43,121 nt of DNA. Source: a virus. Taxonomy: Duplodnaviria; Heunggongvirae; Uroviricota; Caudoviricetes. Below are positions 1 to 28,556 of this stretch, piece by piece. Location: IMG/VR virus record IMGVR_UViG_2529292921_000020; one strand, written 5' to 3'. How positions within the stretch are numbered: the first letter of the stretch is position 1; each line of letters opens with the position of its first letter. The notes under the pieces were generated by a model that saw nothing but the letters and a program-made list of their open reading frames with translations, was not told the origin of the DNA and ran no database searches. The translations under genes were made by a program, and so were the position numbers.

Positions 1-1131
1 TCAAATGACCAGTTTTTTCCATTCCTTACCGCGTGCGTCGTTGTAAATATCGGTCATTTTTTGATTCGAATGGCCTAGCAAAATTTTGGTATCAACCCCC
101 TGCTCTCTGAACAATCGCTCTGATAAAGATCTCTGCTCATGGAAAGAGGGAGGGGTGCCATTAGCACGCCAGTTGTAATCCACAGAATCCCGGGCTTTTT
201 TAAATGCAACGGTTAATGTTGCTGGCTTAACCATCCCGCCGCGCTTAGCTGTCCCTTTCGCGTGATGGTGGTGCAATAGCCACGGACTAAGAACGCAATC
301 GCGGCAGGATGACACCACATCATCCAGGGTGAGATTTAATTTATCGCAACGCAGAGCCAGAGGGATGGCAATCCGGGTTCCTGTTTTTTGCTGTTCGACA
401 TGAAGATAACCATCCCGGATATCCGAAAATTGCATTTTGCAAATATCTGAAAGGCGCTGGCCTGTCATCAGTGCCAGCAGCATACCGCGCTGTAAAAAGT
501 AACCATCCTTTTCCGCTGCGTTATAAATCATCATCCACTCATCAAAAGTCAGTCGCTGTCTTGATATCCGCACCTGCGGTTTTTTTGCCGATTCTGCAGG
601 GTTAAAGCCTGGCGGGACATCGCCCGTTTGCTGAGCTTCCCGGAAAACATCGATCAGTACTTTCCTGAAAATTTGTCCCATTCTGTTATGTCCTCTGGCC
701 TTGTACTCTTCCAGTACTGATACCACATCTTTTACGGTTATGGCATCTAACGGTCTGGTGCCAAAACGTTCATCAAATACCCTGAGAGGGGCCGCTTTCT
801 GTTTCAGCGTGTTGAGTTTGATCTCGCCGTTTTCATATCTTTCCTGTTGAATTTTTCTGTAATTATTCAGAAAAATGGTAACGGTTGATGAACCGCCGGT
901 ATCACTAATAATTTTCTCCTGCAGACTGAGCATTTGTTCCATTTGCTGCCGGGCAAGACGGCTGTTCGCTTCTGCTGCAATAGTTTCTGCCAGTTTCTGG
1001 TCAATACTGCCGAGACCGTGATTTTTGCCTGTTATGGGATGCCTGTAACGCCAGTAAACTTTGTTATTTCTTTTGTCAAAATACGGAGATAATCCCGGAA
1101 CATCGGTTTTATATTTTCGCGGGCGCGCCAT
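1..1131 (-). CDS. int: Phage tyrosine integrase (lambda Int-like)
   Basis: 376-aa ORF; N-terminal arm-binding-like region and C-terminal catalytic region (HxxR...Y context, LLGHS motif) resemble lambda Int; sits at the prophage end next to an excisionase; stop codon at positions 1-3, so attL lies outside the window. Confidence 0.9.
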   Translation of the reverse strand: MARPRKYKTDVPGLSPYFDKRNNKVYWRYRHPITGKNHGLGSIDQKLAETIAAEANSRLARQQMEQMLSLQEKIISDTGGSSTVTIFLNNYRKIQQERYENGEIKLNTLKQKAAPLRVFDERFGTRPLDAITVKDVVSVLEEYKARGHNRMGQIFRKVLIDVFREAQQTGDVPPGFNPAESAKKPQVRISRQRLTFDEWMMIYNAAEKDGYFLQRGMLLALMTGQRLSDICKMQFSDIRDGYLHVEQQKTGTRIAIPLALRCDKLNLTLDDVVSSCRDCVLSPWLLHHHHAKGTAKRGGMVKPATLTVAFKKARDSVDYNWRANGTPPSFHEQRSLSERLFREQGVDTKILLGHSNQKMTDIYNDARGKEWKKLVI

Positions 1132-1357
1132 CTTCCAGTATCCTCTTCAAAGCAGGGTGATCTGTGGCGATCACCTCCGGCTTGTTTACCATTCCGACAA
1201 AGCGAGCTTGCGGATCCACTCGCCAGCGTCTTCCAACTTTTTTGGGGAGAGGAAATATCATTCCGGCTTTAGCGTATTTACTTAACGTACTCGGAGTTGG
1301 GACCGGTTCACTGAATTCCTCTTTTGCCCACTCAGTGAGCAGAATAAGTCTTGCCAT
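1109..1357 (-). CDS. xis: Excisionase (Xis-like)
   Basis: 82-aa ORF immediately upstream of and overlapping int; small basic DNA-binding protein (LTEWAKE...GRRWRV) typical of lambdoid excisionases. Confidence 0.7.
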   Translation of the reverse strand: MARLILLTEWAKEEFSEPVPTPSTLSKYAKAGMIFPLPKKVGRRWRVDPQARFVGMVNKPEVIATDHPALKRILEDGAPAKI

Positions 1358-1421
1358 GAGCGTCGTTCGCTAATCATGGTCGCCGCCACTATAGCTGGTG
1401 GGCAACGACCGGGGTTGAACA

Positions 1422-3893
1422 TTAAAAATCAGCCTGATTCGGGATCAGTTTTTGCCAGATAACTGAAACGTATTTTGCTTGGTAACGGGCGTCATCAAGT
1501 GCATTATGGCGCTCACCTTCGAATGGAATAGCCGTTCTGGCATCGAAGTCTATGGCTTTCCCCAGCTCAACGATTGTGCGTACATCGCGATCGTTGTAGT
1601 AACGCCACGGGCAGGGGATCCCCTGCCGTTCGTATGAACGGCGCAAAATCGTGTTGTCGAAGTTGGCTCCATTTCCCCAGACCTGAACAAAAAATTCACC
1701 GGAGTTTTCGTCGATAAATTCCCGCAATTGTAACAGTGCATCATCTAACGGGATTTCATCGGTCATAATGGCAGATTGCGCTTCGCGTGATTGCTTAAGC
1801 CACCATTTAATGGTGTCCCGATCAATGACCCCGCCAGCAGTTTCCAGATCGATAGTCTTACTAAATTCCGGTCCCATATCTCCGGTTTGCGGATCGAAAA
1901 ATATTGCACCTATTGAGATGATCGGGGCATCAGGATTTTTTCCCATGGTTTCAAGGTCGATCATTAGATGGTCACACGTCCTGCTGGTGGATGTGATTTC
2001 GTGATGACCGTTCACCTTAATTGAGTGATCTGCCGTCTCGCCAGTTTCATTATCGCTATCGTGATGCTGATTGCCGTCAGTGTTCTCCTTGTGTGGATGT
2101 TCAGCGCCTTCCATTTCCTCCGGATCATCTTCCTGAACTTCAACCTGATACTCTTCATCGAATGTTTCCTGGTATGTTGCGTCGCCCATCACCGCGCCAC
2201 AATCAGGGCAGTTGCCGCCGCCGGTCTGACCGCAGGCGGTGCAGACTTTTTCCACTTCCTGTTGCGCCACTGGTTCAGGCTGTTTCGTTTCTGGCTCGTT
2301 TTGTAACGCATTTGGGCTGTTTTGTTCCGCTTTCTGGCCGTTCTGTTCCGTTTCTTGCTGGTTCTGATTCACTGAATCGCGGGTTTCAATCCCCTTCACC
2401 CATTTCGGATCATTCTGGTCGCTAATCCCTGCAACAAATTCTCCGCGAGAGGCAGCAAGCAACTTATCGGCGTCAGGCTGGCTGATATTGGCTGCCTGCA
2501 TAATTTTGTTTACTTCGTCAGCGGTAACTTTTACCGGCTCTGGTTGTGCGGTCGTGTCAGATGCACCAGTATTTTGTTGTGAACCTGAGTATGTACTGTT
2601 TTTGCGGGCGAAATATTCTTCTTTCGTGATTTCAGTAGCCCCGGCAGCCAGCGCCTTATCCAGACCAGAAAGTTTGTTTGCGCGACCGTATTTTTCGCCA
2701 TCCTTGTCGGTGAAGAGGAAGTAGAACGGCCCTTCACGCTCTACAGATGGTTCGACTTCCACTTTGCATTCGGTTTTTTCGTTGTCCGGAATTGCCGTTT
2801 CCACTGCATCAGTTTCTGGTACTGGCGACGAGAGAGTATCAGTTGCGCTCTGATTTCTTCCTTCATCTTCAAACACGCCCTTTGTAGTCAGGTATTCAGT
2901 AATGTATTTGTTCAGTGCCACAGGGTCTTTGTGAATGTCGATCGGACGTTCACGGACAAGGCCAAAAATAGTCTGGCGGTCGTAGCGAAGGGCATCAGGC
3001 TGTTTGCGCATTGATGCCGAGATACGCTTCCAGTCTTCGCGGTCGTTGTCGATAACTTCATTTTTTGCCCAGCGATGGATGCTGCCGTCAATGTTTCCGG
3101 CATCCACATCACCAGGCCAGAGAGCGTAGGCCAGTTCGTCATCCAGTGTTTTCCATGTCTGCTTGTATTCGCGATGAATGGCAGCAATGACCGGGCTGAT
3201 TTTTCCTGTTGAATTTTCAGTGTGCTGTTGATTGGCTCTGGCGCGGGCGAGATCAACAACAGACGTGTATTTTCCGGTTTCCTTGCGTTCACCTTCGCGA
3301 CGTTTTTTCCAGATGCGCATCTCTGCCTGAATTTCGGGCCATTTGGCACCAGGCTTACATTTATGCTTAACCCACCCGATGGCATGCAGCTTAAGCTCCG
3401 GATACATGGCGTTAACTTCTGGCATTTTCATCAACGCTTCAACGATATGTCCGTCGAATGTTGCCATGTCTTCCTGCAACAATTCCTGTGCGCTAATAAC
3501 CATATCAACGGTGATGTTTTCACATGTGTCGAACTTAACCATGACAGCGTTCGGTACTTCAGGGGCCAGCTTGTCAAAAGTGACGTTCATCGGATCTGAT
3601 TCAGTCTCAACCGGGACAAAGGAAGCAGACTCCTCATCCCAGCGGTTTTCCTGCATATATTCAGCATCCCAGGAATCGAGGGCAGGGCGGGGTATGCCGG
3701 GTTTATCCTCACAGACAATAAATTTATAAGCGCAGTCCTGAGCTGCAGGGAATTGCTCCAGAAATTGCCAATGAAATTTTGCGCGTGCGCGACGCTCATC
3801 ACCAGCTTCAATGGCAGTGGCCACCGCAACAGCGCTATCTTCTTTTATGGCCTGTTCATCAGGAATAGCAGCGCAAATAAAGACTTTACTCAT
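1422..3893 (-). CDS. Phage exonuclease with C-terminal DEDDh (DnaQ-like) 3'-5' exonuclease domain; occupies the RecE/Exo VIII position
   Basis: 823-aa ORF; C-terminal ~180 aa carry Exo I (MIDLETMG), Exo II (WGNGANFDNTIL) and Exo III (HNALDDARYQ) motifs; long acidic Q/E-rich N-terminal region; position downstream of xis as for recE in Rac-like prophages. Confidence 0.6.
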   Translation of the reverse strand: MSKVFICAAIPDEQAIKEDSAVAVATAIEAGDERRARAKFHWQFLEQFPAAQDCAYKFIVCEDKPGIPRPALDSWDAEYMQENRWDEESASFVPVETESDPMNVTFDKLAPEVPNAVMVKFDTCENITVDMVISAQELLQEDMATFDGHIVEALMKMPEVNAMYPELKLHAIGWVKHKCKPGAKWPEIQAEMRIWKKRREGERKETGKYTSVVDLARARANQQHTENSTGKISPVIAAIHREYKQTWKTLDDELAYALWPGDVDAGNIDGSIHRWAKNEVIDNDREDWKRISASMRKQPDALRYDRQTIFGLVRERPIDIHKDPVALNKYITEYLTTKGVFEDEGRNQSATDTLSSPVPETDAVETAIPDNEKTECKVEVEPSVEREGPFYFLFTDKDGEKYGRANKLSGLDKALAAGATEITKEEYFARKNSTYSGSQQNTGASDTTAQPEPVKVTADEVNKIMQAANISQPDADKLLAASRGEFVAGISDQNDPKWVKGIETRDSVNQNQQETEQNGQKAEQNSPNALQNEPETKQPEPVAQQEVEKVCTACGQTGGGNCPDCGAVMGDATYQETFDEEYQVEVQEDDPEEMEGAEHPHKENTDGNQHHDSDNETGETADHSIKVNGHHEITSTSRTCDHLMIDLETMGKNPDAPIISIGAIFFDPQTGDMGPEFSKTIDLETAGGVIDRDTIKWWLKQSREAQSAIMTDEIPLDDALLQLREFIDENSGEFFVQVWGNGANFDNTILRRSYERQGIPCPWRYYNDRDVRTIVELGKAIDFDARTAIPFEGERHNALDDARYQAKYVSVIWQKLIPNQADF

Positions 3894-4137
3894 TTTGTTT
3901 TACCTCATTACAGATTTAAGGGTGAACAAATCCCTGCCATTGCTGGCATATAAGAATGAAACCGGATGTTTATTACGGAACTGTTTTAAAGACCTGCCGG
4001 GATTTCGTTATTATCCTGGTGAATAACTTTATCGACCGGGTAACAGTTACCGGGAATTTTCTGTTCGGTTGCTGCAGTCACACACTCCTGCATTGTCCTG
4101 TGAACACTGACTGCAATATCAACTGGCTCTCCGGAAA

Positions 4138-6193
<2,056 letters not shown>

Positions 6194-6840
6194 TTATTTA
6201 ATAGCTCCCGTTCGTGTTTTCTCTTGTTAATGGCATCTTCAGTAAATACAGGGTTACTGATAGTGACACCAATTTCAAAACAACCTTCAGACGTATTAAC
6301 GTTTGGTAATAACGTTTCCATTATCGCGTCCTCAACAATGAATTTTGTGATGTGGTGCCTGGTGCCTCCAGGTGACGTTAACCAGTTAACAATTAACGCC
6401 GGATACAGAGAATCCACCCATAACACTGTTTTTGGTTTTAACTGTTCCGCGTGCGCTCAGCCGCATTCACCGCATCACAAAATTCACTTTAAAAACGGCG
6501 GCAGAGCAGTCACGGAGTAAAACTGATACCGCCAAACGTCACCAGAAAATTGATAACAGAGGGCGTTGCAGCGGGGTTGTCGCTTAAGCGTATGGTCAAC
6601 CTGACAACCCGGTGTCCTCAACGGGGAAGGAATAACCCCGCCATACTTACCGCCGCGCCATTTCGCGGAGTGCCACAACCGGAAGCGCACGGTCGAACTA
6701 AATTTAACGACACCGTACAGAGAGACCAATTTCGCCGTGCGCTTTCGCGTTATGCCCTGACTTTTCAGGGACATATCCTTTCAGTAAACTGTCAGTGCCG
6801 GATGTTCACCCGTGTCCGGCGCACGCACTCCACCTGACCC

Positions 6841-7158
6841 GTGGAGAACTCCTTAATTACCAACCCTCAGGAGGGTGAAATGGATAAAAAGCAAATTGAG
6901 GCCCTGCAATCTATTATTGAAAAACAAGATGAAGCTATCAGGATTCTTTCATATCGCACTGATATGATACTAAATATGCTTTCTGCATTAACGGCTGCGC
7001 TTGGTGGTACAAAAACAAACGTATACCGCGAAGTTGTTATTCAACAGATAGATAAATTTGAAAAAACCATACCAGGTATTAATGCTCATCTTGCAGAACA
7101 AGAGAAAGACCATGCTCTTATGGCAATTTCTTCAGTAGCTCTCCCGAAAGTTGAGTAG
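6841..7158 (+). CDS. Hypothetical protein in AT-rich island
   Basis: 105-aa ORF, predicted helical/coiled-coil, strongly AT-rich codon usage unlike the surrounding phage genes; true start may be the internal Met (MDKKQIEAL). Confidence 0.4.
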   Translation: MENSLITNPQEGEMDKKQIEALQSIIEKQDEAIRILSYRTDMILNMLSALTAALGGTKTNVYREVVIQQIDKFEKTIPGINAHLAEQEKDHALMAISSVALPKVE

Positions 7159-7531
7159 TTTTAATTGTTGTTTTGAAATAATCACTGCTTTCACATTTGA
7201 GTGATTTCATGGCAATCCAAATGCGGGCCTCTGTGCCTGCATTTGGTTCCAGTTGCTGTAGACGTTTTGCGTCTTCCAAAAGTAAGGCGATAATGTGTTT
7301 CAGCTTCTCATCATTTGCTTGATTCTTGTTTTCAGGCGAATTCTGTCCGCCGAATAGGCGCTTCTCTTCATACAGACCTATAAAGGCACGACGCACGTTA
7401 CCGGATATAGTATCGATGGTTTCTTTTTCTACGGTACTCAGGTCAAGAGTCGCCAGTTGAGAGCGAACCACATTCGATGCCATTTCCTGGAATGGTACTG
7501 GTAAATCTTTAAATTCCATCGTCAACCTCAT
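7118..7531 (-). CDS. Hypothetical protein in AT-rich island, convergent with 6841-7158
   Basis: 137-aa ORF (probable start MEFKDLPV); no recognisable motif; occupies the kil/sieB position of Rac-like prophages. Confidence 0.4.
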   Translation of the reverse strand: MRLTMEFKDLPVPFQEMASNVVRSQLATLDLSTVEKETIDTISGNVRRAFIGLYEEKRLFGGQNSPENKNQANDEKLKHIIALLLEDAKRLQQLEPNAGTEARIWIAMKSLKCESSDYFKTTIKTTQLSGELLKKLP

Positions 7532-7764
7532 CAGTCAGTGTTTCTGGTTAACCAGCGACGCGCGCCAGCTTCAGTTTTAAACGTTTTGCTTCTGGTATAC
7601 GTCATCGCGGTAAACGTGCCGTCCTGGTTGGGGAACACGCCACATACCAGAGATTCGTTGTTGCCAAGATTGAGCATATCCATGTTGACCTCATTTCCCC
7701 TTAACGCCGGGGTAGCGGAACAAAAACCTGCTGCATAGTTATTAAAGTTGAACCCTGCCGTCAT
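7531..7764 (-). CDS. DUF1391-family small protein (YdaF-like)
   Basis: C-terminal 50 aa (MDMLNLGNNESLVCGVFPNQDGTFTAMTYTRSKTFKTEAGARRWLTRN) match my recollection of Rac YdaF; real start is probably the internal Met near 7683. Confidence 0.6.
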   Translation of the reverse strand: MTAGFNFNNYAAGFCSATPALRGNEVNMDMLNLGNNESLVCGVFPNQDGTFTAMTYTRSKTFKTEAGARRWLTRNTD

Positions 7765-7869
7765 GTTCTTACGCCTCGGGCTGGCTACTTAACCCCTGAC
7801 CACTGCCTGGTAACTCGAAGTATTGCCCTGCATTCTGTGGGGCGGGGTGGGTTGGTATGAAAAGAAGGA

Positions 7870-7906
7870 TACCCATAGGTATTTAAAAAGTAAATACCCA
7901 TGGGTA
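7870..7906. promoter_or_regulatory. OL-like operator pair: TACCCATAGGTA (7870-7881) and perfect palindrome TACCCATGGGTA (7895-7906)
   Basis: Two 12-bp dyad-symmetric sites 25 bp apart, between the 3' end of the leftward repressor gene and the leftward early genes. Confidence 0.5.
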
Positions 7907-7948
7907 AATTTTTGCGGGGTCTTAACTGGTGACTAGTTGTTTGGTGAG

Positions 7949-8367
7949 CTATGATGCGTTTTGTGCTTTCTTTTTACGGATTTCTTCGTAGATCATATTG
8001 TAATACTGTTTTTTCTCTTCAAGAGTTTTTAATAATTTATCCGCTTCACTTTCTGGCAGTTCGTCTAAGAGATCTAAAAAAATACGTTGTCGTGGCGTTA
8101 GAACCCTTGTTTCATAACTGGAGGCTGTGTTCGTTGATGATGAAACGATACCATCCATCCATCCCCGGGGTAACCCAAAGGACTCTTCGATAATCTCCAC
8201 CATATCATCAGCGATCCGTTTTTTCCCTTTTTCCCCTCTGGGTACAACATTCTTGATACATAAGAAGGCTCGCGCCCGATCTTTCTGGCCACGTTAACCG
8301 CTTTACCATCGCATTTCTCATCACGAATTTTGATGAGTTGCTGTCGTCTAAATTCATATTTGTCCAT
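7949..8367 (-). pseudogene. Leftward prophage repressor (RacR/DicA position, HTH N-terminus), split into two overlapping frames by an apparent frameshift in T6/T5 runs at about 8217-8230
   Basis: ORFs 8098-8367 (HTH-like ...AVNVARKIGREPSYVSRML...) and 7949-8203 overlap in different frames; both frames are open across the homopolymer tract, so a 1-nt indel would give one ~140-aa protein. Confidence 0.55.
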
Positions 8368-8467
8368 AGGTAAATAATAGATGCGATTACCGCAAGGTAA
8401 ACAACCTGTGGGTATTGACTTTTGTTTACCTGCGGGTGTTCTTTGCTGTGTTTACTAAGGAGTAGCT
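8368..8467. promoter_or_regulatory. Divergent OR-like control region with repeated GGTAAAC / GTTTACC half-sites
   Basis: 100-bp intergenic region between divergent repressor and Cro-like genes; GGTAAATAA, GGTAAACAA, TGTTTACC, TGTTTACT repeats; TTGACT -35-like hexamer at 8415. Confidence 0.5.
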
Positions 8468-8749
8468 ATGGAAGAATTAAGAATATTTCTCAATTCTCTT
8501 TCGTCAGATGAACAGCGTATGTTTGCATGCGAGTGTGGTACCAGCATCGGTTATCTAAGAAAGGCATTGAGTAAAGGTCAAGTGTTAGGGGCATCGTTAT
8601 GTGTCCTTATTGAGCGAGCCAGTAATGGTGAAGTTACACGTCAGCAACTAAGGCCTTTTGATTGGATGAATATTTGGCCCGAGCTGGAAGATACCAAAAC
8701 GTTAACACAACCACTTTCTAGGAGCTTGATTCATGAAAATCAAGCATGA
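8468..8749 (+). CDS. Cro/YdaS-like small DNA-binding protein
   Basis: 93-aa ORF divergent from the repressor, first gene of the rightward operon; HTH-like segment (ECGTSIGYLRKALSKGQV). Confidence 0.55.
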   Translation: MEELRIFLNSLSSDEQRMFACECGTSIGYLRKALSKGQVLGASLCVLIERASNGEVTRQQLRPFDWMNIWPELEDTKTLTQPLSRSLIHENQA

Positions 8750-9158
8750 ACACATCCGCATGGCGATGAATGTCTGGGCGCATCCGGACGGCGAAAAAGT
8801 GCCGGCTGCGAAAATTACCAAAGCGTATTTCGAGCTGGGAATGACGTTCCCGGAACTGTATGACGACAGCCATCCGGAAGCCCTGGCCCGTAATACCCAG
8901 AAAATTTTCCGTTGGCTGGATAAAGACACCCCTGATGCTGTTGAAAAAATGCAGGCTCTGTTACCGGCGATCGAAAAGGCGATGCCGCCTTTGCTGGTGG
9001 CCCGTATGCGCAGCCACAGTTCTGAATATTACCGTGAGATCGTCGAACGGAGGGATCGGCTGGTGAAGGATGTCGATGATTTTGTTGCGTCAGCGGTTGT
9101 TTTGTATGACCAGATGAATCGCGGCGGCCCGGCAGGGAATGCTGTGGTGATGCACTAA
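8733..9158 (+). CDS. YdaT-like protein
   Basis: 141-aa ORF overlapping the Cro-like gene end; N-terminus MKIKHEHI... and size match my recollection of Rac YdaT. Confidence 0.5.
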   Translation: MKIKHEHIRMAMNVWAHPDGEKVPAAKITKAYFELGMTFPELYDDSHPEALARNTQKIFRWLDKDTPDAVEKMQALLPAIEKAMPPLLVARMRSHSSEYYREIVERRDRLVKDVDDFVASAVVLYDQMNRGGPAGNAVVMH

Positions 9159-9165
9159 AAGCACG

Positions 9166-10143
9166 GTGTTCGGGGGTTTTATGAGCAGCAAGCTTCATGG
9201 TCTTGTCTGGGAAGGGTGCGCCTTCACCGGCATGATCTTATCCAGGGTGGCGGTTATGGCCCGTCTTGCAGACTACAGCAATGACGAGGGCGTGTCATGG
9301 CCTGCCATTGAAACTATCCGGCGTCAGATCGGTGCAAGAAGTGAATCCACAGTGAAATCGGCTATTGCAGAACTGGCGAAAGAGGGCTGGCTGACGAAGG
9401 AAGAGCGTAAGGTCGGTGGGCGTAATGTAAGCAATATCTATCGGCTTAATGTGGAAAAACTCGAAGCAGCTGCGGCGGCGGCGCGTGAGTCATATAAACC
9501 GAAAAGAAAAATTAGCCCGGCAAAAAATGACCCGTTAACAGTTGACCCGTCAAATATTGACCCCTCAACGGTTGACCCGTCAAATTTTGATGGATCAACT
9601 GTTGATAAAAAACTGCCGATTAGGGGGGCGATGATTGACCCCGATCCGTCAGTATTAAAACCTGATCCGTCAGATAAAAGATCTTCTTGTCCGGACGCTT
9701 CGCAACCGGACCCGCAGACGGCTGAACAGGATTTTTTAACCCGACACCCTGACGCGGTTGTGTTCAGTGCGAAAAAACGCCAGTGGGGAAGTCAGGAAGA
9801 TTTGGTGTGCGCACAGTGGATCTGGGGACGAATCGTGAGTCTTTACGAGCAGGCGGCCAGCTATGATGGCGAGATCGCTAGACCGAAAGAACCCAACTGG
9901 ACAGCATGGGCCAATGACGTTCGCACAATGCGGATGCTGGATGGCAGAACTCACAGACAAATTTGTGAAATGTTTGGGCGTCTCCAGCGGGATTCGTTCT
10001 GGGTAAAAAACATCATGAGTCCGGCAAAACTCCGGGAAAAATGGGATGAACTGGTTATCCGCCTGGGGCGTTCGCCTGCGCAGCGTTGCGTGAATCACAT
10101 TTCTGAACCGGACACTGAAATTCCGCCGGGCTTCAGGGGGTAA
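9166..10143 (+). CDS. Phage replication initiation protein (winged-helix N-terminal domain) with internal origin iterons
   Basis: 325-aa ORF; N-terminal HTH-type segment (SWPAIETIRRQIGARSESTVKSAIAELAKEGWL); iterons inside the coding region as in lambda O. Confidence 0.65.
   Translation: MFGGFMSSKLHGLVWEGCAFTGMILSRVAVMARLADYSNDEGVSWPAIETIRRQIGARSESTVKSAIAELAKEGWLTKEERKVGGRNVSNIYRLNVEKLEAAAAAARESYKPKRKISPAKNDPLTVDPSNIDPSTVDPSNFDGSTVDKKLPIRGAMIDPDPSVLKPDPSDKRSSCPDASQPDPQTAEQDFLTRHPDAVVFSAKKRQWGSQEDLVCAQWIWGRIVSLYEQAASYDGEIARPKEPNWTAWANDVRTMRMLDGRTHRQICEMFGRLQRDSFWVKNIMSPAKLREKWDELVIRLGRSPAQRCVNHISEPDTEIPPGFRG
9525..9620 (+). repeat. Putative replication origin: four TGACCC(G/C) iterons at about 15-bp spacing plus the palindrome TCAACTGTTGA
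   Basis: aatGACCCGTtaacagtTGACCCGTcaaatatTGACCCCTcaacggtTGACCCGTcaaat; encodes a repetitive peptide (LTVDPSNIDPSTVDPSNFD). Confidence 0.6.
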
Positions 10144-10183
10144 GTGTTAATTTCTGGTCATGAGGTAATTTTCAGGAGGGCTT

Positions 10184-10606
10184 GTGGCAAAAGTTTTTAC
10201 ACAAGAAGAGCGGGAAAAAATTAAAGGGCAGGTTGTTGAACTCGTACGCCAGAGTGGGCGCGAGACGTTACGACAACTGGAAACTAAAACTGGGGCAACA
10301 AGATATCTGATGAGCGTTCTGGCCAGAGAGCTGGTTGCCAGTGGCGATGTATACAACTCTGGTTACGGGTTATTCCCGTCTGAACAGGCGCGTAAGGACT
10401 GGCAAAATGCCCGTAAAAAGCTCTCAAGGGCAAAGCTGAAGAAACCATCTGCGGTTGATCCGGACCTTATCTGGTCATTACCTGACGGAGAAATACGTCG
10501 CTACGACAGGCGTCAGAACATAATCTGTCGCGAGTGCCGGAAGAGCGAAGCTATGCAGCGCGTACTGGCGTTTTATCAGGGGAATTTTGAGGAGGTGGTG
10601 CGGTGA
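10184..10606 (+). CDS. Hypothetical early-region phage protein
   Basis: 140-aa ORF after the replication gene; no recognisable motif. Confidence 0.4.
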   Translation: MAKVFTQEEREKIKGQVVELVRQSGRETLRQLETKTGATRYLMSVLARELVASGDVYNSGYGLFPSEQARKDWQNARKKLSRAKLKKPSAVDPDLIWSLPDGEIRRYDRRQNIICRECRKSEAMQRVLAFYQGNFEEVVR

Positions 10607-10849
10607 GTGAATCAAAATGCCAGGTTAATGGCAACAAGATAGAACCATGTGCAGCACTGGCAAAGTCCCTTGAGCGTGATGCTGAATACACGATGCGAAA
10701 AGGTCTGCTGATATACAAAATCTGAAATGAGAGTTTAACTCGCGGTCCTGATTTTGTGATGTTGCGTTCCGGTGAATTTTCTAAATTACCAGTTCGGGTT
10801 TCATTTTGTCCGTTCTGTGGTGAAAGTCTGAAAACGTGGGAGAACAGAA

Positions 10850-11161
10850 ATGAATGAAATTAAAGAAATACCAGTAGTACGTGATGAATATGGCTGCTGG
10901 ACGCATCCTGAATATGAAAAATTCTGTGACGGTCGGGAATATATTTCAACGGAAGAGTTTAACGCCTGGATGGAGGAAAATAATCTTCAATACGTCCTCT
11001 GCTTCAGAGATGAAGGATGTGCTGACCTTGATGCGTGTGATGCTGATATTTCTGCATGGGAACCGGAACGACCAGAGGGCAATGGATGGTTTATTGGTTC
11101 AATACATGACACCGAAGATGGCCCGGTTTGTGTATGGCTGAGAAATAAGGTCGAAGCATAA
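10850..11161 (+). CDS. Strongly acidic small protein (hypothetical)
   Basis: 103-aa ORF; about 25 Asp/Glu versus about 9 Lys/Arg by hand count. Confidence 0.45.
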   Translation: MNEIKEIPVVRDEYGCWTHPEYEKFCDGREYISTEEFNAWMEENNLQYVLCFRDEGCADLDACDADISAWEPERPEGNGWFIGSIHDTEDGPVCVWLRNKVEA

Positions 11162-11281
11162 AGGCTATAAACCGACTAACAACTAAATACTGAAGATTTA
11201 AATCAGAAACGATTTTTATTAAATCCTTAACCGGAGGGATTCCTGCACCCTCAAATCATCAGGAGGCCGCCCGAAAGGGCG

Positions 11282-11788
11282 GTGGAGATAATAATGGGAA
11301 TAACTAAAGAACGATTGTTGGAAATAGCAAACCTTAGTGATTGGGCATTAAGTGATGAGAGAATTGTTTCTCCTCATGCTTATGAGTCAGTTACAAGTAT
11401 AGAAATAACAACAATGGCTAGAATGCTGCTTGGTTATTTCAAAATAGAAAATAAAAAACAGATGGATAGTAATGTTGATATATGTGAGATTTTAGACGAT
11501 TGGGGGGCTTGGGTTGTGGCTGGTAATAGTTCTATTGATTGGCAGGAAATAGCTGATAAATATAAAAATGTTGTTCCTCATGGTAAAAAATCACGTCGTC
11601 AGTGCAGCAATGATGAAGGGCGAATTATTGACATTAGTATCCTTAGGTTAGAAAGATATAAGCAACAAGAATATGAGTTAATTGTTGCTCATTTCGTGAT
11701 TGGTTTATCTCTTCGTGCTATTGCAAAGCAACAAGGATGTTCAGATGGAACAATTCGTAAAAGATTGCAAAAAGCCTTAGGTTTTTGA
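11282..11788 (+). CDS. Q-like antitermination-family protein (QuuD-type), AT-rich
   Basis: 168-aa ORF; motifs WGAW, SRRQCSNDE and C-terminal HTH CSDGTIRKRLQKA resemble my recollection of DLP12 QuuD; real start may be internal. Confidence 0.45.
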   Translation: MEIIMGITKERLLEIANLSDWALSDERIVSPHAYESVTSIEITTMARMLLGYFKIENKKQMDSNVDICEILDDWGAWVVAGNSSIDWQEIADKYKNVVPHGKKSRRQCSNDEGRIIDISILRLERYKQQEYELIVAHFVIGLSLRAIAKQQGCSDGTIRKRLQKALGF

Positions 11789-11817
11789 CTGGATATATAG
11801 CAATTACCAGTTAAGAG

Positions 11818-12450
11818 TCAGCGGTTTTTACCAGTGTAATGGTATAAGGATACTCCCATGTGTCTTACATGATATGGAAGCGCTGTTGCTGGATGCTTTG
11901 TGATACTCTTAAAGCGGAGGGGAGAGCCTTCCGCTTCAATTTCTGCGTCCGAAACGGTCGTAGAGAAAAATTCTTTCCATTCATTGAATTTTACTGCTGA
12001 TTTGTCAGACTTTATATAAATTAGAATTCCTCCATGATCGTCACGTGACGTACCCGTGCCGTAACGTTCGGTTAGCTGAATCCAGCCATTATGAATAGAT
12101 TTGGGGCCTCTCCATAATTTTGCTTCACCGATCCATTCGAATTTTCCGAATTGATGTTTAACTAATAAATCAACGTGACCGCCATGTTGAGTATCATGTT
12201 CAACATCATAAAACCTACCTTTCAGGAAATTTTTGATCGACGCTGTTAGCTCGTCCTCTCCCCACTTAGCATCTTGATAGAAGTGTTTGTCATTTTCTAA
12301 ATTCTGAATAGCGTCGTCTAAATCTTCATAGAGTTGCTTTACAAAAATATTTTTGTCTGCAGCTAATTTTCTTTGAACCATTCCCCTAAATTCAGGATCC
12401 ATTCTAATTAATGATTGAAGGTCTGCAGTACAGATGTTTACATCACTCAT
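11818..12450 (-). CDS. PD-(D/E)xK-type nuclease-like protein, third gene of a three-gene operon
   Basis: About 210 aa from MSDVNICTADL; core motif GGHVDLLVKHQFGKFEWIGEAKLW (D...ExK); start ATG overlaps the upstream stop (ATGAGTGA). Confidence 0.55.
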   Translation of the reverse strand: MSDVNICTADLQSLIRMDPEFRGMVQRKLAADKNIFVKQLYEDLDDAIQNLENDKHFYQDAKWGEDELTASIKNFLKGRFYDVEHDTQHGGHVDLLVKHQFGKFEWIGEAKLWRGPKSIHNGWIQLTERYGTGTSRDDHGGILIYIKSDKSAVKFNEWKEFFSTTVSDAEIEAEGSPLRFKSITKHPATALPYHVRHMGVSLYHYTGKNR

Positions 12451-12871
12451 GCAGACTCTCCAAAAGACTCGAAGGAGTAAAGTATGGATAAAGATACTGG
12501 CTAAAATTATCAACCAATTCGCCAGTTTCTGGATGGTAAAAACTTCCTGTGTCTAAAGCATAGGAAATAAGATCATCTTCAACTGGTATTGGTTCTTCCG
12601 TTAAATTATCAATGTATTGAAAATGCATATCCAATAGATGTGCTTTATAGCTAGATAAATAATCAGTTGCTTTTATTAGCAGGATATAGTCATCTTTCGT
12701 ATCAGTTAGATAGGTTAAACCATTGATAAGGGTTTTGTATGTAAAGTGATTGATATTTTTAGCATCTTTACTAACCAGAAAAAGAAAAAGATCACGACAC
12801 ACACTGCGAACAGGATCATTAAAATCCTGCTCTATTTGCGTGATAATGTCGTGATATATACTCTTTTTCAT
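12443..12871 (-). CDS. Hypothetical protein, middle gene of the three-gene operon
   Basis: 142-aa ORF, AT-rich; start overlaps the stop of the upstream gene (ATGA) and its stop overlaps the start of the nuclease gene. Confidence 0.5.
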   Translation of the reverse strand: MKKSIYHDIITQIEQDFNDPVRSVCRDLFLFLVSKDAKNINHFTYKTLINGLTYLTDTKDDYILLIKATDYLSSYKAHLLDMHFQYIDNLTEEPIPVEDDLISYALDTGSFYHPETGELVDNFSQYLYPYFTPSSLLESLHE

Positions 12872-13964
12872 TTATGGCCTGATGATCTCGCTCTTCTTTT
12901 CTCTTCACAGGACTTAACAGAATCCAATATTTTTTCAACAATAAATATAATCGAATCAATGTTGTTACAGTTCTTCGCAATTGCTTCATGCAACCTAATT
13001 CTAGGATTATCAAGCATTGTCCTTTTTCCTGGTAATATTAACTCTACTGATAAAATATGTGAAGAACTTTGTGGTAAATCCCAAATTTTTCCCAACTTAA
13101 ACTTTGTCAATATTGGGCTTGCGGACTCTCCACTATGATGGTAAACATCTTGACGCAAACACTTTTGACTTGGTTTGAGTTTTAAAGAACTTGTATTGCC
13201 ATCTGAGGTGATAAAAGATACATGAGAAATTCTGCCATCTACTTTTTCGTAAAGATCTTGTATTGAACCAAATAATTCAAGAGGATTGTTTAAAATAACG
13301 CCAGCTTCTTTTTTATAAATTTAGCCACAAGGTATTGTTGAGGCTGTGATTCACTTCTTGGAAGGATAGATAAATCAATCGTAAGAATTAATATTTTTTC
13401 TGCAGGCATTAGCATGATGGTATTAAAGCATTGCGTGACTTGGCGTGTTTTGCATTTTATTTCTCCACCATTAGCACGTAATTCCATACCCGCATCGCTA
13501 AGATGTGTTGGGTCAAGCTCTATCACTTCAGTGTAATACGCTTTGGATAAAAAAACAGCAGTGTCAATTTGTTTATCACGAATGATATCTTGACGTAGTT
13601 CAGCAAAATGCAGCTCAGTATCAGCAACTAACAGCTCCTCTCTGGATAAAGGAATTGGGTATTTTTCTGAGAAGGGGCTATTGTCCTTTTTCTGATTTGT
13701 GAAAATTGTTTGTAATTTTGCTACGTCTTCATCGGTGATTCTATAAATAGAAAGTAATCGATTCCCGCTAAAAATTAAACCTTTCCAGAAATCGTCGATT
13801 CTGTCTTTTAGGTCGGGATTATGCTGAACTACACTATTTACACGTTCAATAAAAAGGGGTAATCCTTGGGCCGTTACACCCAGTGATGAACCAAGAAGCT
13901 TACGGGTGTTGCGCCAGCCAAAGCGTGAATTGATGTTTTTTACTGTTTGCTCAAGCATTAACAC
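12868..13964 (-). pseudogene. First gene of the three-gene operon, split into two frames (13290-13964 and 12868-13320); about 360 aa if fused
   Basis: 224-aa ORF ends at a TAA at 13290-13292 while the downstream frame is open from 13320 to 12868 without a start codon; the frames overlap around a T6 run at 13309-13314. Confidence 0.45.
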
Positions 13965-14304
13965 TTCCTTAATTTTCCCTTAACAATTTAGGGTGCTAAA
14001 CTTTTTTGCGCAGTTTACATAAAAAAATAGTGCGTACGCAAAAACTATCTAACATGATGAGCTTTAACCGGGAAATTTGTATATGTTGTGAGCATAAAGT
14101 TGGCTGAGAAATCTAAAACGGGTAGAATGACTGCGGGTGCTTGAGGCTATCTGTCTCAGGCATGAACACCAAAAGGCAGATAGAGAAAAGCCCCAGTTAA
14201 CATTACGCGTCCGGCAAGACGCTTAACATTAATCTGAGGCCATATCTATGCTCTACACACGTAGGTTAGCCTCTTACGTGCCGAAAGGCAAGGAGAAGCA
14301 GGCT

Positions 14305-14460
14305 ATGAAGCAGCAAAAGGCGATGTTAATCGCCCTGATCGTCATCTGTTTAACCGTCATAATGACGGCACTGGTAACGAGGAAAGACCTCTGCGAGGTA
14401 CGAATCCGAACCGGCCAGACGGAGGTCGCTGTCTTCACAGCTTACGAACCTGAGGAGTAA
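14305..14460 (+). CDS. hokD: Hok/Gef-family type I toxin (HokD/RelF-like), with overlapping upstream mok-like frame from 14248
   Basis: MKQQKAMLIALIVICLTVIMTALVTRKDLCEVRIRTGQTEVAVFTAYEPEE, near-identical to my recollection of E. coli HokD; upstream leader has inverted repeats (CTATCTG / CAGATAG). Confidence 0.8.
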   Translation: MKQQKAMLIALIVICLTVIMTALVTRKDLCEVRIRTGQTEVAVFTAYEPEE

Positions 14461-14526
14461 GAGACCAGGCGGGGGAGAATCCCTCGCCACCTCTGATGTG
14501 TCAGGCATCCTCAACGCACCCGCACT

Positions 14527-14553
14527 TAACCCGCTTCGGCGGGTTTTGTTTTT
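14527..14553 (+). terminator. Rho-independent terminator downstream of hok
   Basis: CCCGC-TTCG-GCGGG stem-loop followed by TTTTGTTTTT. Confidence 0.6.
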
Positions 14554-14625
14554 CCTGGCATTCTGGTTTACAATTCGCACGCCAGCCTGAACAACTGGCA
14601 CCTGCTGCGCCAGCAGAGACAACCG

Positions 14626-14904
14626 ATGGCGCACGATACCAAATTACACAATTCTGATGATTCTGCCGTCTTTGCCAGCAGGCACGGGCGGCGTTCCCGC
14701 ACTTTCAAATCTGACTGGTTCCAGCATCCCCCATGCACTGAAGAACAGGCCGAGTGGCTAATTCAGTGCTACCGCAGACACGGATACGAGATTAAGAAAG
14801 CCCTCAGCCTCGATTATCGTCACTGGATAATCTCCGTCAGGCTTCCTTACTCCGAACGACCACCGCGTCCGTCCCGCACATTCCAGCAACGCATCTGGAG
14901 GTAA
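14626..14904 (+). CDS. Hypothetical small phage protein (rem position of Qin)
   Basis: 92-aa ORF immediately upstream of the DUF968 gene. Confidence 0.4.
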   Translation: MAHDTKLHNSDDSAVFASRHGRRSRTFKSDWFQHPPCTEEQAEWLIQCYRRHGYEIKKALSLDYRHWIISVRLPYSERPPRPSRTFQQRIWR

Positions 14905-14905
14905 C

Positions 14906-15955
14906 GTGCGGGTATTACTTCGACCTGTTCTGGTACCGGAACTCGGGCTGGTGATCGTTAAGCCGGGCCGTGAATCCATGCCGGTATTCCACAATACCCG
15001 GGTACTGGTGGAGCCGGAACCGAAAAGCATGCGTAATCTGCCGTCCGGGGTCGTTCCTGCCGTTCGCCAGCCGCTGGCGGAGGATAAATCATTACTGCCA
15101 TTTTTCAGCGACGAACGAGTGATTCGTGCTGCTGGTGGCGCTGGCGCATTGTCTGACTGGTTACTGCGCCATGTTAAATCCTGCCAGTGGCCACACGGTG
15201 ATTATCACCACAGTGAAACCGTCATTCACCGTTATGGTACCGGCGCAATGGTGTTGTGCTGGCACTGCGACAACCAGCTGCGCGACCAGACCTCCGAATC
15301 ACTCGGGCAACTTGCTCACCAAAACCTGTCAGCATGGATGATTGACGTCATACGCCATGCAATGAATGGCTCGCAGGAACGGGAATTATCGCTGGCTGAA
15401 TTATCCTGGTGGGCGGTCCGCAATCAGGTGGCGGACGCGCTACCGGAAGCGGTATTACGTCGTTCGCTGGGGTTGCGTGCGGAAAAAATCCGCTCAATGT
15501 ACCGTGAAAGCGACATCGTACCGGGAGAGCAGACCGCCACCAGCATACTGAAACAGCGCACAAAAAATCTTGCGCCGCTGCCTCACGCCCACCAGCAACA
15601 GAACCCACCACAGGAAAAGACGGTGGTCAGCATTGCCGTTGATCCTGAGTCTCCGGAATCTTTCATGAAACGACCTAAACGTCGCCGCTGGGTTAACGAG
15701 AAATACACACGCTGGGTGAAGACACAGCCGTGTGCGTGTTGTGGTAAGCCAGCCGACGATCCCCATCACCTGATTGGTCATGGTCAGGGCGGAATGGGGA
15801 CAAAATCTCACGATATTTTCACGCTACCGCTGTGTCGGGAGCATCACAACGAGCTTCATGCGGATCCGCTGACGTTCGAAGAAAAGCATGGTTCTCAGGT
15901 TGATTTAATTTTTCGTTTTCTTGATCACGCCTTTGCAACTGGCGTGCTTGGGTAA
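14906..15955 (+). CDS. DUF968-family phage protein (YdfU-like)
   Basis: 349-aa ORF; C-terminal Cys/His-rich motif CACCGKPADDPHHLIGHGQGG...CREHHNELH; position upstream of rusA and Q. Confidence 0.65.
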   Translation: MRVLLRPVLVPELGLVIVKPGRESMPVFHNTRVLVEPEPKSMRNLPSGVVPAVRQPLAEDKSLLPFFSDERVIRAAGGAGALSDWLLRHVKSCQWPHGDYHHSETVIHRYGTGAMVLCWHCDNQLRDQTSESLGQLAHQNLSAWMIDVIRHAMNGSQERELSLAELSWWAVRNQVADALPEAVLRRSLGLRAEKIRSMYRESDIVPGEQTATSILKQRTKNLAPLPHAHQQQNPPQEKTVVSIAVDPESPESFMKRPKRRRWVNEKYTRWVKTQPCACCGKPADDPHHLIGHGQGGMGTKSHDIFTLPLCREHHNELHADPLTFEEKHGSQVDLIFRFLDHAFATGVLG

Positions 15956-16327: not shown

Positions 16328-17013
16328 ATAACCAGTATTTACAGTTTGTTCGTGAGCAACTCATGATTGCCACCGCCGATTTGAGTGGATCAACAAAAGG
16401 GCAGCTTGAGGCCTGGCAGGAGAATGCCATGTTTGATACAGGGCGTTACAGGCGTAAAAAAATCCGGTACCGCGATGAAGTGACTGGAAAAATGATAACG
16501 CGGGATAATCCACCAATCCCGGGAAAGCAATCGCTGGCGAAGGGGGCGTCAATTCCTCTCGTCAGTCCGGTTGAGTTTTTGACATCATCGTGGCGGCGGG
16601 CTGTTCTGTCTCTTGAAGAACATCATAAAGCCTGGTTGTTGTGGTGTTACAGCGGGAGTATTTGTTGGGAATATCAGATCGCGATAACACAGTGGGCGTG
16701 GAATGAATTTAATACTCAATCCGGTACCAGAAAAATTGCTGGGAAAACGCAGGAACGCCTGAAAAAATTAATCTGGCTGGCGGCGCAGGCAGTAAAAGCA
16801 GAACTTTTTGGTGGGGAAGGTTATGAATATCAGGAGCTGGCATTACTGGCGGGAGTGACAACTAAAAACTGGTCCAAAACATTTACTCGTCACTGGGTTG
16901 CAATGAAACACATTTTTCACCGACTGGATAGTGAGGCTTTATTATTTGTAATGAGAACACGTTCAAAACAAAAGGCGGCATTTTCAAAGCAAAGTGTTGC
17001 AAAAGTAGATTGA
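16324..17013 (+). CDS. Late-gene antitermination protein Q-like
   Basis: 229-aa ORF directly after rusA and before the promoter, terminator and tRNA-lysis region, the canonical Q position; family assigned by synteny. Confidence 0.6.
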   Translation: MNNQYLQFVREQLMIATADLSGSTKGQLEAWQENAMFDTGRYRRKKIRYRDEVTGKMITRDNPPIPGKQSLAKGASIPLVSPVEFLTSSWRRAVLSLEEHHKAWLLWCYSGSICWEYQIAITQWAWNEFNTQSGTRKIAGKTQERLKKLIWLAAQAVKAELFGGEGYEYQELALLAGVTTKNWSKTFTRHWVAMKHIFHRLDSEALLFVMRTRSKQKAAFSKQSVAKVD

Positions 17014-17077
17014 AAGGCATATATTTCATGCAAATCTGATATTTTGCCGATTTTGTACGTGATGGCAAAATCAAACA

Positions 17078-17104
17078 AAACCCGCCCACAAGCGGGTTTT
17101 TTTG
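17078..17104 (+). terminator. Rho-independent terminator downstream of Q (tR'-like)
   Basis: AAAACCCGCCCACAAGCGGGTTTTTTTG: GC stem plus T7 run. Confidence 0.65.
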
Positions 17105-17170
17105 TGCCACTTATCTCGGATAGACATGGTGAATGCGCTGGTGGAGGAGATAAGGGTGATTTTTGTATGC

Positions 17171-17199
17171 TTGCAACATTGATTTCGTAACGTTATTAT
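17171..17199 (+). promoter_or_regulatory. Sigma-70-like promoter upstream of the tRNA cluster
   Basis: -35 TTGCAA (17171-17176), 17-bp spacer, -10 TATTAT (17194-17199), about 10 bp before tRNA 1. Confidence 0.55.
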
Positions 17200-17208
17200 C
17201 CTGCGCCC

Positions 17209-17284
17209 GGCCCTTTAGCTCAGTGGTGAGAGCGAGCGACTCATAATCGCCAGGTCGCTGGTTCAAATCCAGCAAGGGCCACCA
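17209..17284 (+). tRNA. tRNA with CAT anticodon (Met or lysidine-modified Ile2; ileZ-like position), CCA encoded
   Basis: Hand-folded cloverleaf: acceptor GGCCCTT / AAGGGCC, anticodon loop CTCATAA, T-loop TTCAAAT, 3' ACCA. Confidence 0.8.
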
Positions 17285-17285
17285 A

Positions 17286-17361
17286 CCGCCACTAGCCATC
17301 AGGAAAGAGCGTCAACCCTTTAAGTTGAGTGTGCGAGGTTCGAGTCCCCGGTGGTGGTCCA
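17286..17361 (+). tRNA. tRNA-like gene with atypical D-arm and anticodon loop (argN-like position); anticodon uncertain
   Basis: Acceptor CCGCCAC / GTGGTGG (one G-U), T-arm CGAGG-TTCGAGT-CCCCG, 3' TCCA; anticodon loop reads CCTTTAA with C at position 33. Confidence 0.5.
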
Positions 17362-17374
17362 TTATCGGTATTCT

Positions 17375-17448
17375 GCGTTGTTAGCTCAGCAGGACAGAGC
17401 AATTGCCTTCTAAGCAATCGGTCACTGGTTCGACTCCAGTACAACGCG
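17375..17448 (+). tRNA. tRNA-Arg (anticodon TCT, reads AGA); CCA not encoded
   Basis: Acceptor GCGTTGT / ACAACGC, D-arm AGCTCAGCAGGACAGAGC, anticodon loop CTTCTAA, T-loop TTCGACT. Confidence 0.8.
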
Positions 17449-17576
17449 CTACACTTATTTTCCCGGCTCGCTTTTGCGGGCCTTTTTTTTAAATGTCTCA
17501 CAATTCAGACGGTTGACAGTTGTCTGTTTTGCGGGGAGTTTGTTAAGTAAGCGACTCGTCAGAACCGTATTGATAT

Positions 17577-19148
17577 TTACTGAGAGCTCAGATCAACTTT
17601 CCAGGGCAACAGATCGCGTACCCGGTTTGCCGGCCAGTCCTGGATATGTTCAATGACGTAACGCAGCCACTTTTCTGGCTCCACATTGTTCAGACGGCAT
17701 GTGCCGATCAGCGAGTACAACACCGCCGCATGTTCACCACCGCTGTCGGAACCCGCGAACATCCAGTTTTTCCGGCCTACGGCCACTCCCCGTAAGGCGT
17801 TCTCTGCGATGTTGTTGTCGATTTCCACCCAGCCATTACTGCAGTACACGTTCAGTGCATCCCACTGTTTCAGCAGGTATGCGAACGCTTTTGCCGTATC
17901 TGAGTGACGCGACAGTGTTTTCATCTGTTGCTGTATCCAGTCATACAGTGACTGCATCAGTGGCGCGGCTCTGGCTTTTCTTGCCGCCAGACGCTGTTCT
18001 GCTGAACAGCACCGGACCTCTGCCTCGATGGCATACAGTTCACCGATACGCTGCAGGGCTTCCGTGGTGATGTAGGTGGGCGCTCTTGCATGCACATCGT
18101 GGATTTTTCTCCGGGCATGAGCCATACACGCGGCTTCCGTTATTCTGCCGGATTCGTATAACGCCCGGTAACCACCGTAAGCATCGGCCTGAAGCACACC
18201 GCTGTAACCGGCCAGGTGATTTTGTGGATGGATACCTTTCCGGTCCGGACTGTACGCGAACCAGACCGCCGGGGGCATCTGTGAACCGGCGTTACGGTCA
18301 TCACGGACGTAGACCCACAGCCGGGCTGTCCGGGTTTTACCGCTGCCCGGCTCCTGGACCGGGACGGGGATATCATCAGCATGGACTTTACCGGGCATCA
18401 GCACATACTGGCGCAGGACGTCATACAGCGGCTCCAGCAGTTCAGCAACAGCACCTGTCCAGCGCCCCAGTGTGGCACGGCTCAGCTCCACGCCCTGACG
18501 ACGGTATATTTCTGACTGGCGGTATAACGGCAGATGGTCTGCATATTTCCCGGTGACAACATGGGCCAGAAGCCCCGCTCCGGCATAACTGCGTGCAATG
18601 GGTTTTGAAGGTACTGGTGCCTGCACGATATGGTCGCACCGGCAACAGGCCTGTTTCGGACGTTGTGTTTCGATAACCTTAAAGGCGCTGCTGATAAGCT
18701 CCAGTTGCTCTGACACATCACATCCCAGAGAACTGAGTTCACCACCACAGGCAGGACAGCATTCCTCTTCCGGCCGGATAACCCGGGTTTCACGGGGAAG
18801 TGAGGCCGGTAACGGTTTACGGGCTGAAGACTGGCGCAGGGCGGATGGCAGTACCGGGTCATATTGCTCACCCAGCGTTTCCGCCATTTCTTCCTGAAGT
18901 GCGCTGATTCGCTCCTGTGCTTCCTGTATCTGCCGTTCGGTTTTTGCACGAAGTTTTTCTGAGCTTTTACCGAACTGCATACGTTGCAGTTTCGCAACCA
19001 GCGCCTTCAGCCGGTTGATTTCGGAAGCATAAGCCGCCACCCGCTGTGAGAGCAGGCGGTTGTATTCAGCCATCTGGCGGATGGTGTCCTGTTGCGTCTG
19101 CAACAGTGCCCGCAGGCGGGCGTTCTCATGAGCAAGTGAGGTGTCCAT
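17577..19148 (-). CDS. IS66-family transposase (TnpC)
   Basis: 523-aa ORF with N-terminal coiled coil, Cys-rich zinc-binding region and DDE core typical of IS66 transposases. Confidence 0.85.
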
Positions 19149-19167
19149 ATCCTCACTTTACAACGGG

Positions 19168-19515
19168 TTATATGCGGATTCCAGCGCGTTCCGTTCGTTT
19201 CGGGTGCTTCCAGTTGATACCTTCAAGAAGCATGGATAACTGAGCCGGAGTAAGGTGCACCTTGCCGTCACGGGTGACTGGCCAGACGAAGCGGCCCCGC
19301 TCCAGGCGTTTGGTGAAGAGGCACAGTCCGTCACTGTCAGCCCACAACACTTTTATCTGGTCACCCCGGCGTCCGCGGAAGATGAACAGGTGTCCGGAGA
19401 ACGGGTCATCCTTCAGGACGTTCTGAACTTTTGATGCCAGGCCGTTAAAGCCATTTCGCATATCGGTGATACCTGCAACCAGCCAGATACGCGAACCTGC
19501 AGGGAGAGATATCAT
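19168..19515 (-). CDS. IS66 accessory protein TnpB (Orf2)
   Basis: 115-aa ORF MISLPAGSRIWLVAGITDMRNGFNGL..., characteristic IS66 Orf2. Confidence 0.8.
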   Translation of the reverse strand: MISLPAGSRIWLVAGITDMRNGFNGLASKVQNVLKDDPFSGHLFIFRGRRGDQIKVLWADSDGLCLFTKRLERGRFVWPVTRDGKVHLTPAQLSMLLEGINWKHPKRTERAGIRI

Positions 19516-28494: not shown

Positions 28495-28556
28495 CCCTGT
28501 TCACACTGTAACCATCACGAACCGCTCCGGCGGTTTTTTATTTTCAGGAGGCTGAT

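Follow-up and report, generated by a model that had tools for sequence, protein, structure and literature searches.

A homopolymer undercall probably accounts for the split immunity repressor gene of an ompW-adjacent lambdoid prophage

The DNA analyzed here, a stretch of 43,121 nucleotides from a tailed-phage genome (hereafter the window), records a leftward repressor gene as two overlapping ORFs of 89 and 84 amino acids, and this raises the question of whether the prophage has truly lost its repressor or whether only its deposited sequence is broken. The original prediction, made from the sequence alone, had pointed out the two ORFs, proposed that one indel would restore a single protein of about 140 amino acids, and suggested either a decaying element or a sequencing error. 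Our ORF listing likewise places both ORFs on the minus strand in different frames (Table 1), and the analyses below consider the lesion, the protein, the immunity region and the assembly in which the lesion is found.

The gene was aligned with its orthologues in E. coli EC958 and SMN013SH2, and the sole difference across it is one A missing from a coding-strand run of seven (A7). Restoring this base gives a single translation of 139 amino acids, which is also the single protein found in the orthologues, so the proposed one-indel repair was right. Apart from the length of the A run, the split ORFs are 100% identical to the intact 139 amino acid protein WP_000362153.1, and the gene is a full-length orthologue with 100% nucleotide identity except for the 1-nt gap. 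WP_000362153.1 is encoded in the ompW-adjacent lambdoid prophage of EPEC E2348/69 and in many other E. coli, at the same integration site and with the same neighbors, i.e., DUF1391, dicB and an exonuclease on one side and cro-like, YdaT-like and replication genes on the other; the gene in the window differs from it in having an A7 tract that is one base shorter. In the deposited sequence no single frame runs uninterrupted through the gene. The original prediction had placed the break across T6 and T5 runs at about 8217-8230, which is about the right region, but only the T6 run is affected, and the neighboring T5 run (8228-8232) is unchanged relative to the relatives.

The intact gene was detected in 822 of 5426 complete E. 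coli genomes (571-nt query, all top matches spanning 572 nt), and in the protein collection at least 1000 contigs carry the intact protein. Since the intact gene is this widespread, the split is not a chance ORF pattern. The gene is a single 139 amino acid ORF in at least 819 of the 822 orthologue-bearing genomes, and orthologues consisting of two genuine genes, named beforehand as the finding that would overturn the prediction, were not encountered. The two ORFs are thus the halves of one repressor gene, which is itself already well known and widespread among prophages. Neither the 89 amino acid product, which lacks helix 4 and the C-terminal domain, nor the 84 amino acid product, which lacks the HTH, is likely to repress.

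Table 1. Features of the immunity region, IS elements and homopolymer contractions in the window.
Feature	Position	Strand	Details
Immunity repressor gene, recorded frameshifted	7949-8367	-	419 nt here; 420 nt / 139 aa when intact; PHROG 5736
Lesion	8219-8224	-	plus-strand T6 = coding A6; 7 in relatives; codons 49-51 GGA AAA AAA CGG
N-terminal frame (89 aa)	8098-8367	-	residues 1-49 authentic (helices 1-3 including HTH), then 40 out-of-frame residues
C-terminal frame (84 aa)	7949-8203	-	starts at internal ATG (M56 of intact protein); helix 4, linker, DicA-like helical C-terminal domain
cro-like / YdaS-like regulator, divergent, intact	8468-8749	+	'transcriptional regulator' in E2348/69
cII-like / YdaT-family gene, intact	8733-9158	+	Pfam YdaT_toxin 2.8e-10; PHROG 163, CII-like
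Three operator-like palindromes TACC-N4-GGTA	8388-8438		8388-8399 exact; 8403-8414 and 8427-8438 one mismatch each; repressor/cro intergenic
Two exact TACC-N4-GGTA palindromes	7870-7906		7870-7881 and 7895-7906; just downstream of repressor gene
IS21-family element	4138-6091		truncates ydfD-like DUF1482 gene; private to this lineage
IS66-family element	17547-20277		between Q and lysis genes; common to GCA_900448265.1
ISEc13 copy (IS4 family)	~33960-35511		disrupts 3' end of head-closure gene; common to GCA_900448265.1
Second IS4-family element	37813-39234		in front of tape-measure gene; private to this lineage
Contraction T7 to T6	8218 (run 8219-8224)	plus-strand T	in repressor
Contraction T6 to T5	11781 (run 11782-11786)	plus-strand T	3' end of Q-like antiterminator gene; 168 aa vs 173 aa
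Contraction T7 to T5 (2 nt lost)	11824 (run 11825-11829)	plus-strand T	3' end of convergent hypothetical gene
Contraction T7 to T6	13308 (run 13309-13314)	plus-strand T	splits 363-aa hypothetical gene into ORFs 13290-13964 and 12868-13158
Contraction T6 to T5	14548 (run 14549-14553)	plus-strand T	intergenic, after hokD
Contraction T7 to T6	28533 (run 28534-28539)	plus-strand T	intergenic, large terminase / capsid

The restored protein matches PHROG 5736 ('transcriptional regulator', E 6.4e-70). Pfam returned no family for the restored protein, its N-terminal 78 residues or the 89 amino acid product, even at E <= 10, and a PDB sequence search gave nothing significant. The fold was analyzed on an AlphaFold model built on a 99%-identical protein (P0019) with a 27-sequence alignment. 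This model (mean pLDDT 86.9, with 92-97 across residues 1-70) shows helices at residues 3-18, 23-30, 34-40 (HTH) and 54-63, a loop at 41-53, a disordered linker at 77-87 and a helical hairpin at 92-138; the lesion falls in the 41-53 loop, which links the recognition helix to helix 4. Its best PDB matches were XRE/Cro-type phage repressors, C-proteins and HigA, with probabilities of 0.9-1.0 and marginal E-values (1e-3 to 0.3). The HTH that had been assigned to the N-terminal frame is therefore borne out by structure and remote homology, as the AlphaFold model and Foldseek give the helical HTH fold of an XRE/Cro-CI-type repressor while no Pfam HTH model matches.

Homology searches showed that residues 1 to ~75 share 64-82% identity with N-terminal domains from many LexA/S24 (PF00717) phage repressors of 221-242 amino acids. 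Within this DNA-binding domain, the frameshift lies inside the motif YPEGKKGKKRIADDM, which hardly varies among proteins of both architectures, those with an S24 and those with a DicA-like C-terminal domain. Residues 89-134 share 33% identity with the C-terminus of K-12 DicA over 46 residues (BLASTP, E 2e-7), and the NCBIfam DicA model (NF007257) aligns to residues 86-136 only (E 1.9e-5) and scores 24.5 bits against a cut-off of 101, which leaves the protein outside that family. No match to the S24 autopeptidase (PF00717) was found, the protein ending in a 50-residue helical hairpin. The repressor is a mosaic of a CI-type DNA-binding domain and a DicA-like C-terminal domain, presumably oligomerizing, without a self-cleavage domain. 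As the S24 peptidase domain is absent and a DicA-like helical domain stands in its place, RecA-stimulated self-cleavage of this repressor would not be expected.

DicA of the Qin cryptic prophage of K-12 occupies the same position in its immunity region, between dicC/ydfX-like genes and ydfA-dicB, has a homologous C-terminal helical domain and also lacks an S24 autocleavage domain, but its N-terminal DNA-binding domain is unrelated in sequence to that of the repressor, which has no HTH_3 match. The LexA/S24 CI repressors of enterobacterial temperate phages have a similar N-terminal domain and differ by their S24 peptidase. The best structural match was the Rep repressor of a Salmonella temperate phage (PDB 5d50/5d4z, Rep-Ant complex; Foldseek E 1e-3, probability 1.00), which combines an XRE-type HTH N-terminal domain with a helical C-terminal domain and, according to the entry title, is controlled by an antirepressor rather than by self-cleavage; its sequence identity to the repressor model is only 16-23%, with TM-scores of 0.37-0.47. 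RacR of the Rac prophage offers a functional analogy only, in that the repressor is divergent from ydaS/ydaT-type genes, and no sequence similarity to K-12 RacR was detectable by BLASTP (best E-value 2.3). The suggested RacR/DicA-like affiliation consequently holds for the C-terminal 46 residues, which resemble DicA, but not for RacR, nor for the N-terminal domain, which groups with the LexA/S24-type CI repressors.

The locus is the immunity repressor of a lambdoid prophage integrated beside ompW, and is transcribed divergently from the cro-like and cII/YdaT-like genes across three operator-like palindromes, which a leftward promoter-like site (8401-8374) overlaps. The exact form TACC-N4-GGTA occurs three times in 43 kb (7870, 7895 and 8388), each time beside the repressor gene. 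The downstream pair also forms a hairpin of 16 bp, with a T-rich tail behind it on the minus strand, and could represent a second operator set, the terminator of the repressor gene, or both. Judged by their positions, from which the operator and promoter roles are deduced, all five sites are consistent with predicted operators overlapping divergent promoters.

What a broken repressor would mean for the host is suggested by the Rac module, in which loss of racR is lethal through derepression of ydaS/ydaT (PMC5700377, PMC5700373). By this analogy, and because the early, Q and lysis genes have no indels relative to their intact E2348/69 counterparts (the Q-like gene excepted for a T-run contraction at its 3' end), one would expect true loss of the repressor to come at a cost.

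To place the lesion in the context of its assembly, the window was compared with its closest relatives. It corresponds to the final 43,121 nt of draft contig AIEW01000022.1 (166,064 nt; GCA_000249075.2), to which positions 1-13893 are 100.000% identical, the same IS21-family insertion included; the protein at the IS21 junction was found in no other assembly of the collection than GCA_000249075.2. The first 25 kb are 99.9% identical to the ompW-adjacent lambdoid prophage of EPEC O127:H6 E2348/69, where the repressor is intact, and the nearest relative is GCA_900448265.1 (5.1-Mb contig). Both AIEW01000022.1 and this 5.1-Mb contig came up in an exact-match search with the exonuclease protein of the window. 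Over the ~35 kb aligned with GCA_900448265.1 there are 3 substitutions, 2 IS insertions and 6 window-specific indel events. Positions 1-4137 are identical, 6092-15846 hold one substitution and five contractions, and 16834-37812 hold one substitution, the sixth contraction and two G-run differences. When polarized with E2348/69 as outgroup, the only substitution that is clearly window-specific is that at 35741.

All six indel events, also when scored against E2348/69, are contractions of plus-strand T6 or T7 runs, with no expansions, and two of them are intergenic. Contraction has affected 6 of the 35 T runs of at least six and none of the 38 A runs of at least six (Fisher p = 0.0095); by length, 4 of 10 T7 and 2 of 24 T6 runs are shortened. 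A G or C stands immediately before every contracted run, and the stretch from 8.2 to 14.6 kb contains five of the six. Simple models of error and of mutation both fail to explain the restriction to T on one strand. Homopolymer indels are absent from the 8.6-kb chromosomal flank, which with just seven A/T runs of at least six provides no statistical power. GCA_900448265.1 has private G-run differences of its own (L009 positions 9158, G9 vs G8, and 15219, G5 vs G6), at which the window agrees with E2348/69; the change at 15219 splits the portal gene of GCA_900448265.1 into products of 454 and 407 amino acids, a gene that is whole in the window and in E2348/69. Since this relative carries its own private differences, disagreement in run length looks assembly-specific.

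The same lesion is also seen elsewhere. Among ~15 billion proteins, the exact 89 amino acid product had one copy; the 2-kb Logan contig that encodes it (ERR4562137) comes from another strain and carries four further homopolymer indels, one of them within the same repressor gene. The identical A6 allele was present in 2 of the 822 complete genomes, MLI104K2 and ETEC1703, and ~99.8% of complete genomes carry A7. MLI104K2 also has a T7-to-T5 change in the repressor gene, homopolymer changes around the gene and several prophage pseudogenes labeled 'frameshifted', while for ETEC1703 PGAP annotates the 84 amino acid piece only. The exact A8 allele searched for was absent from the complete genomes; A8 variants would nevertheless exist in other assemblies, as implied by alternative-frame proteins such as P0041 ('...QRGKREKKRIADD...'). 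PHROG 27486, a 59-position profile that matches residues 1-50 only, seems to have been built from frameshift fragments of this tract. Apparent frameshift products at the repressor A tract (P0036, P0041, P0047, P0050, P0059 and P0060) consist either of the N-terminal 50 residues followed by junk or of an alternative-frame N-terminus joined to the true C-terminus. The A tract is a recurrent hot spot, whether technical or mutational.

All four IS insertions noticed in the prophage by the original prediction were confirmed (Table 1). Two of them, the IS21-family and the second IS4-family element, have no counterpart in GCA_900448265.1, whose prophage is near-identical in other respects; they are hence recent and show that real, recent decay has taken place. 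Whatever the state of the repressor, the prophage is very probably defective for particle formation. At the junction of the Q/tRNA genes with the late region, the window has its IS66-family element where E2348/69 has an ISEc13 copy (L003 positions 16594-18175), and the flanks on both sides are the same; either one IS has replaced the other or two different IS have inserted at one site. Diverged tandem copies with a period of ~162 nt, 88-91% identical, show up as offset BLAST self-matches in the 3' part of the portal gene (32232-32825). The window ends at 43121 with contig AIEW01000022.1, within the tail-gene region, and similarity to E2348/69 drops from 42940, suggesting that the assembly broke at a tail module that is recombinant or repeated.

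Taken together, we consider it probable that the missing base is a homopolymer-length undercall in sequencing or assembly and that the gene is intact in the organism; the draft GCA_000249075.2 would then have recorded the A7 tract as A6 and thereby split the gene into its 89 and 84 amino acid ORFs. We infer a technical rather than a mutational cause because about one private substitution stands against six contractions of the same type, two of them in non-coding DNA. With intergenic sites and one 2-nt loss among the six, the pattern also fits a systematic undercall better than decay targeted at the repressor. The break moreover hits the nearly invariant motif. The rest of the gene matches the intact allele at 100% identity, and no indels occur in the cro-like, YdaT-like, replication and lysis genes, the sole indel of the Q-like gene being its 3'-end T-run contraction. 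Of the two causes suggested at the outset, error is thus favored for the repressor, whereas decay holds for the prophage, whose degradation is evident from the IS insertions and not from the repressor. Against an undercall speak the strict strand bias, which is unlike a consensus of reads from both strands, the two private IS insertions as real decay in the same prophage, and the A6 alleles of MLI104K2 and ETEC1703, which indicate that natural strains may acquire and tolerate the change. These last two points, together with the heavily degraded prophage of one of these two genomes, also lend substance to a genuine deletion, in which replication slippage in the A7 tract would have made the repressor a pseudogene of an already defective prophage carrying four IS elements; its tolerance would be explained if early or late expression were otherwise crippled, or if another prophage provided the same immunity in trans. 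We judge this unlikely, although not far-fetched. To our knowledge, mutation-accumulation data show substitutions outnumbering indels even in mismatch-repair-deficient E. coli, and a mutational origin is disfavored because it would need indels several-fold above substitutions: six indels of one type beside about one lineage-specific substitution are hard to obtain by mutation. In addition, the repressor gene has no other change, no damage is apparent in the downstream cro-like, YdaT-like, Q and lysis genes, and, of the two complete genomes with the A6 allele, MLI104K2 may owe its allele to a technical cause, given the further homopolymer changes in and around the gene.

The shortened tract could also be rescued or exploited, by a -1 ribosomal slip, by transcriptional slippage or as a phase-variable A-tract switch. 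The sequence GGA AAA AAC does place the slippery heptamer A_AAA_AAC in the zero frame and in X_XXY_YYZ register, so that a -1 shift re-enters the authentic frame, and frameshift products at this tract recur in databases. There is, however, no downstream stimulatory structure (87-nt fold z-score -1.19, not significant), the A6 arrangement is not conserved (2 of 822 genomes) and has no A8 counterpart in complete genomes, and the other five contractions have no such rationale. For transcriptional slippage to be efficient, A6 is a short run, and in E. coli the codon AAC shifts poorly in comparison with AAG. We regard such a rescue as highly improbable. A real deletion whose carrier, with the cro-like, YdaT-like, replication and lysis genes intact beside the broken repressor, survives through low-level -1 slippage on A_AAA_AAC, or an A7 tract that serves as a recurrent mutational switch of stochastic derepression in this widespread prophage family, would be very unlikely as well; the A6 allele has been seen independently in at least three other assemblies. 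That the ORFs are two genuine genes for an HTH peptide and a C-terminal peptide has in its favor that pipelines sometimes call only the 84 or a 114 amino acid piece 'phage repressor protein', but the conserved domain spans the junction, 40 residues of the 89 amino acid product are out of frame, and the orthologue alignments, with their single ORF, contradict it; we therefore reject this reading as next to impossible.

For quality control, a homopolymer undercall as the preferred explanation means that the frameshift should not by itself be taken as a sign that the strain has lost its repressor or that its prophage is derepressed. The same contig carries five more T-run contractions, three of which disrupt or change other genes. 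A true deletion would be a case of ordinary pseudogenization in an IS-ridden prophage. With regard to the intact repressor, the similarity of the N-terminal domains indicates that it and the S24 repressors that share this domain probably recognize similar operators, and hence phages with SOS-cleavable and with non-cleavable repressors may have one operator specificity in common.
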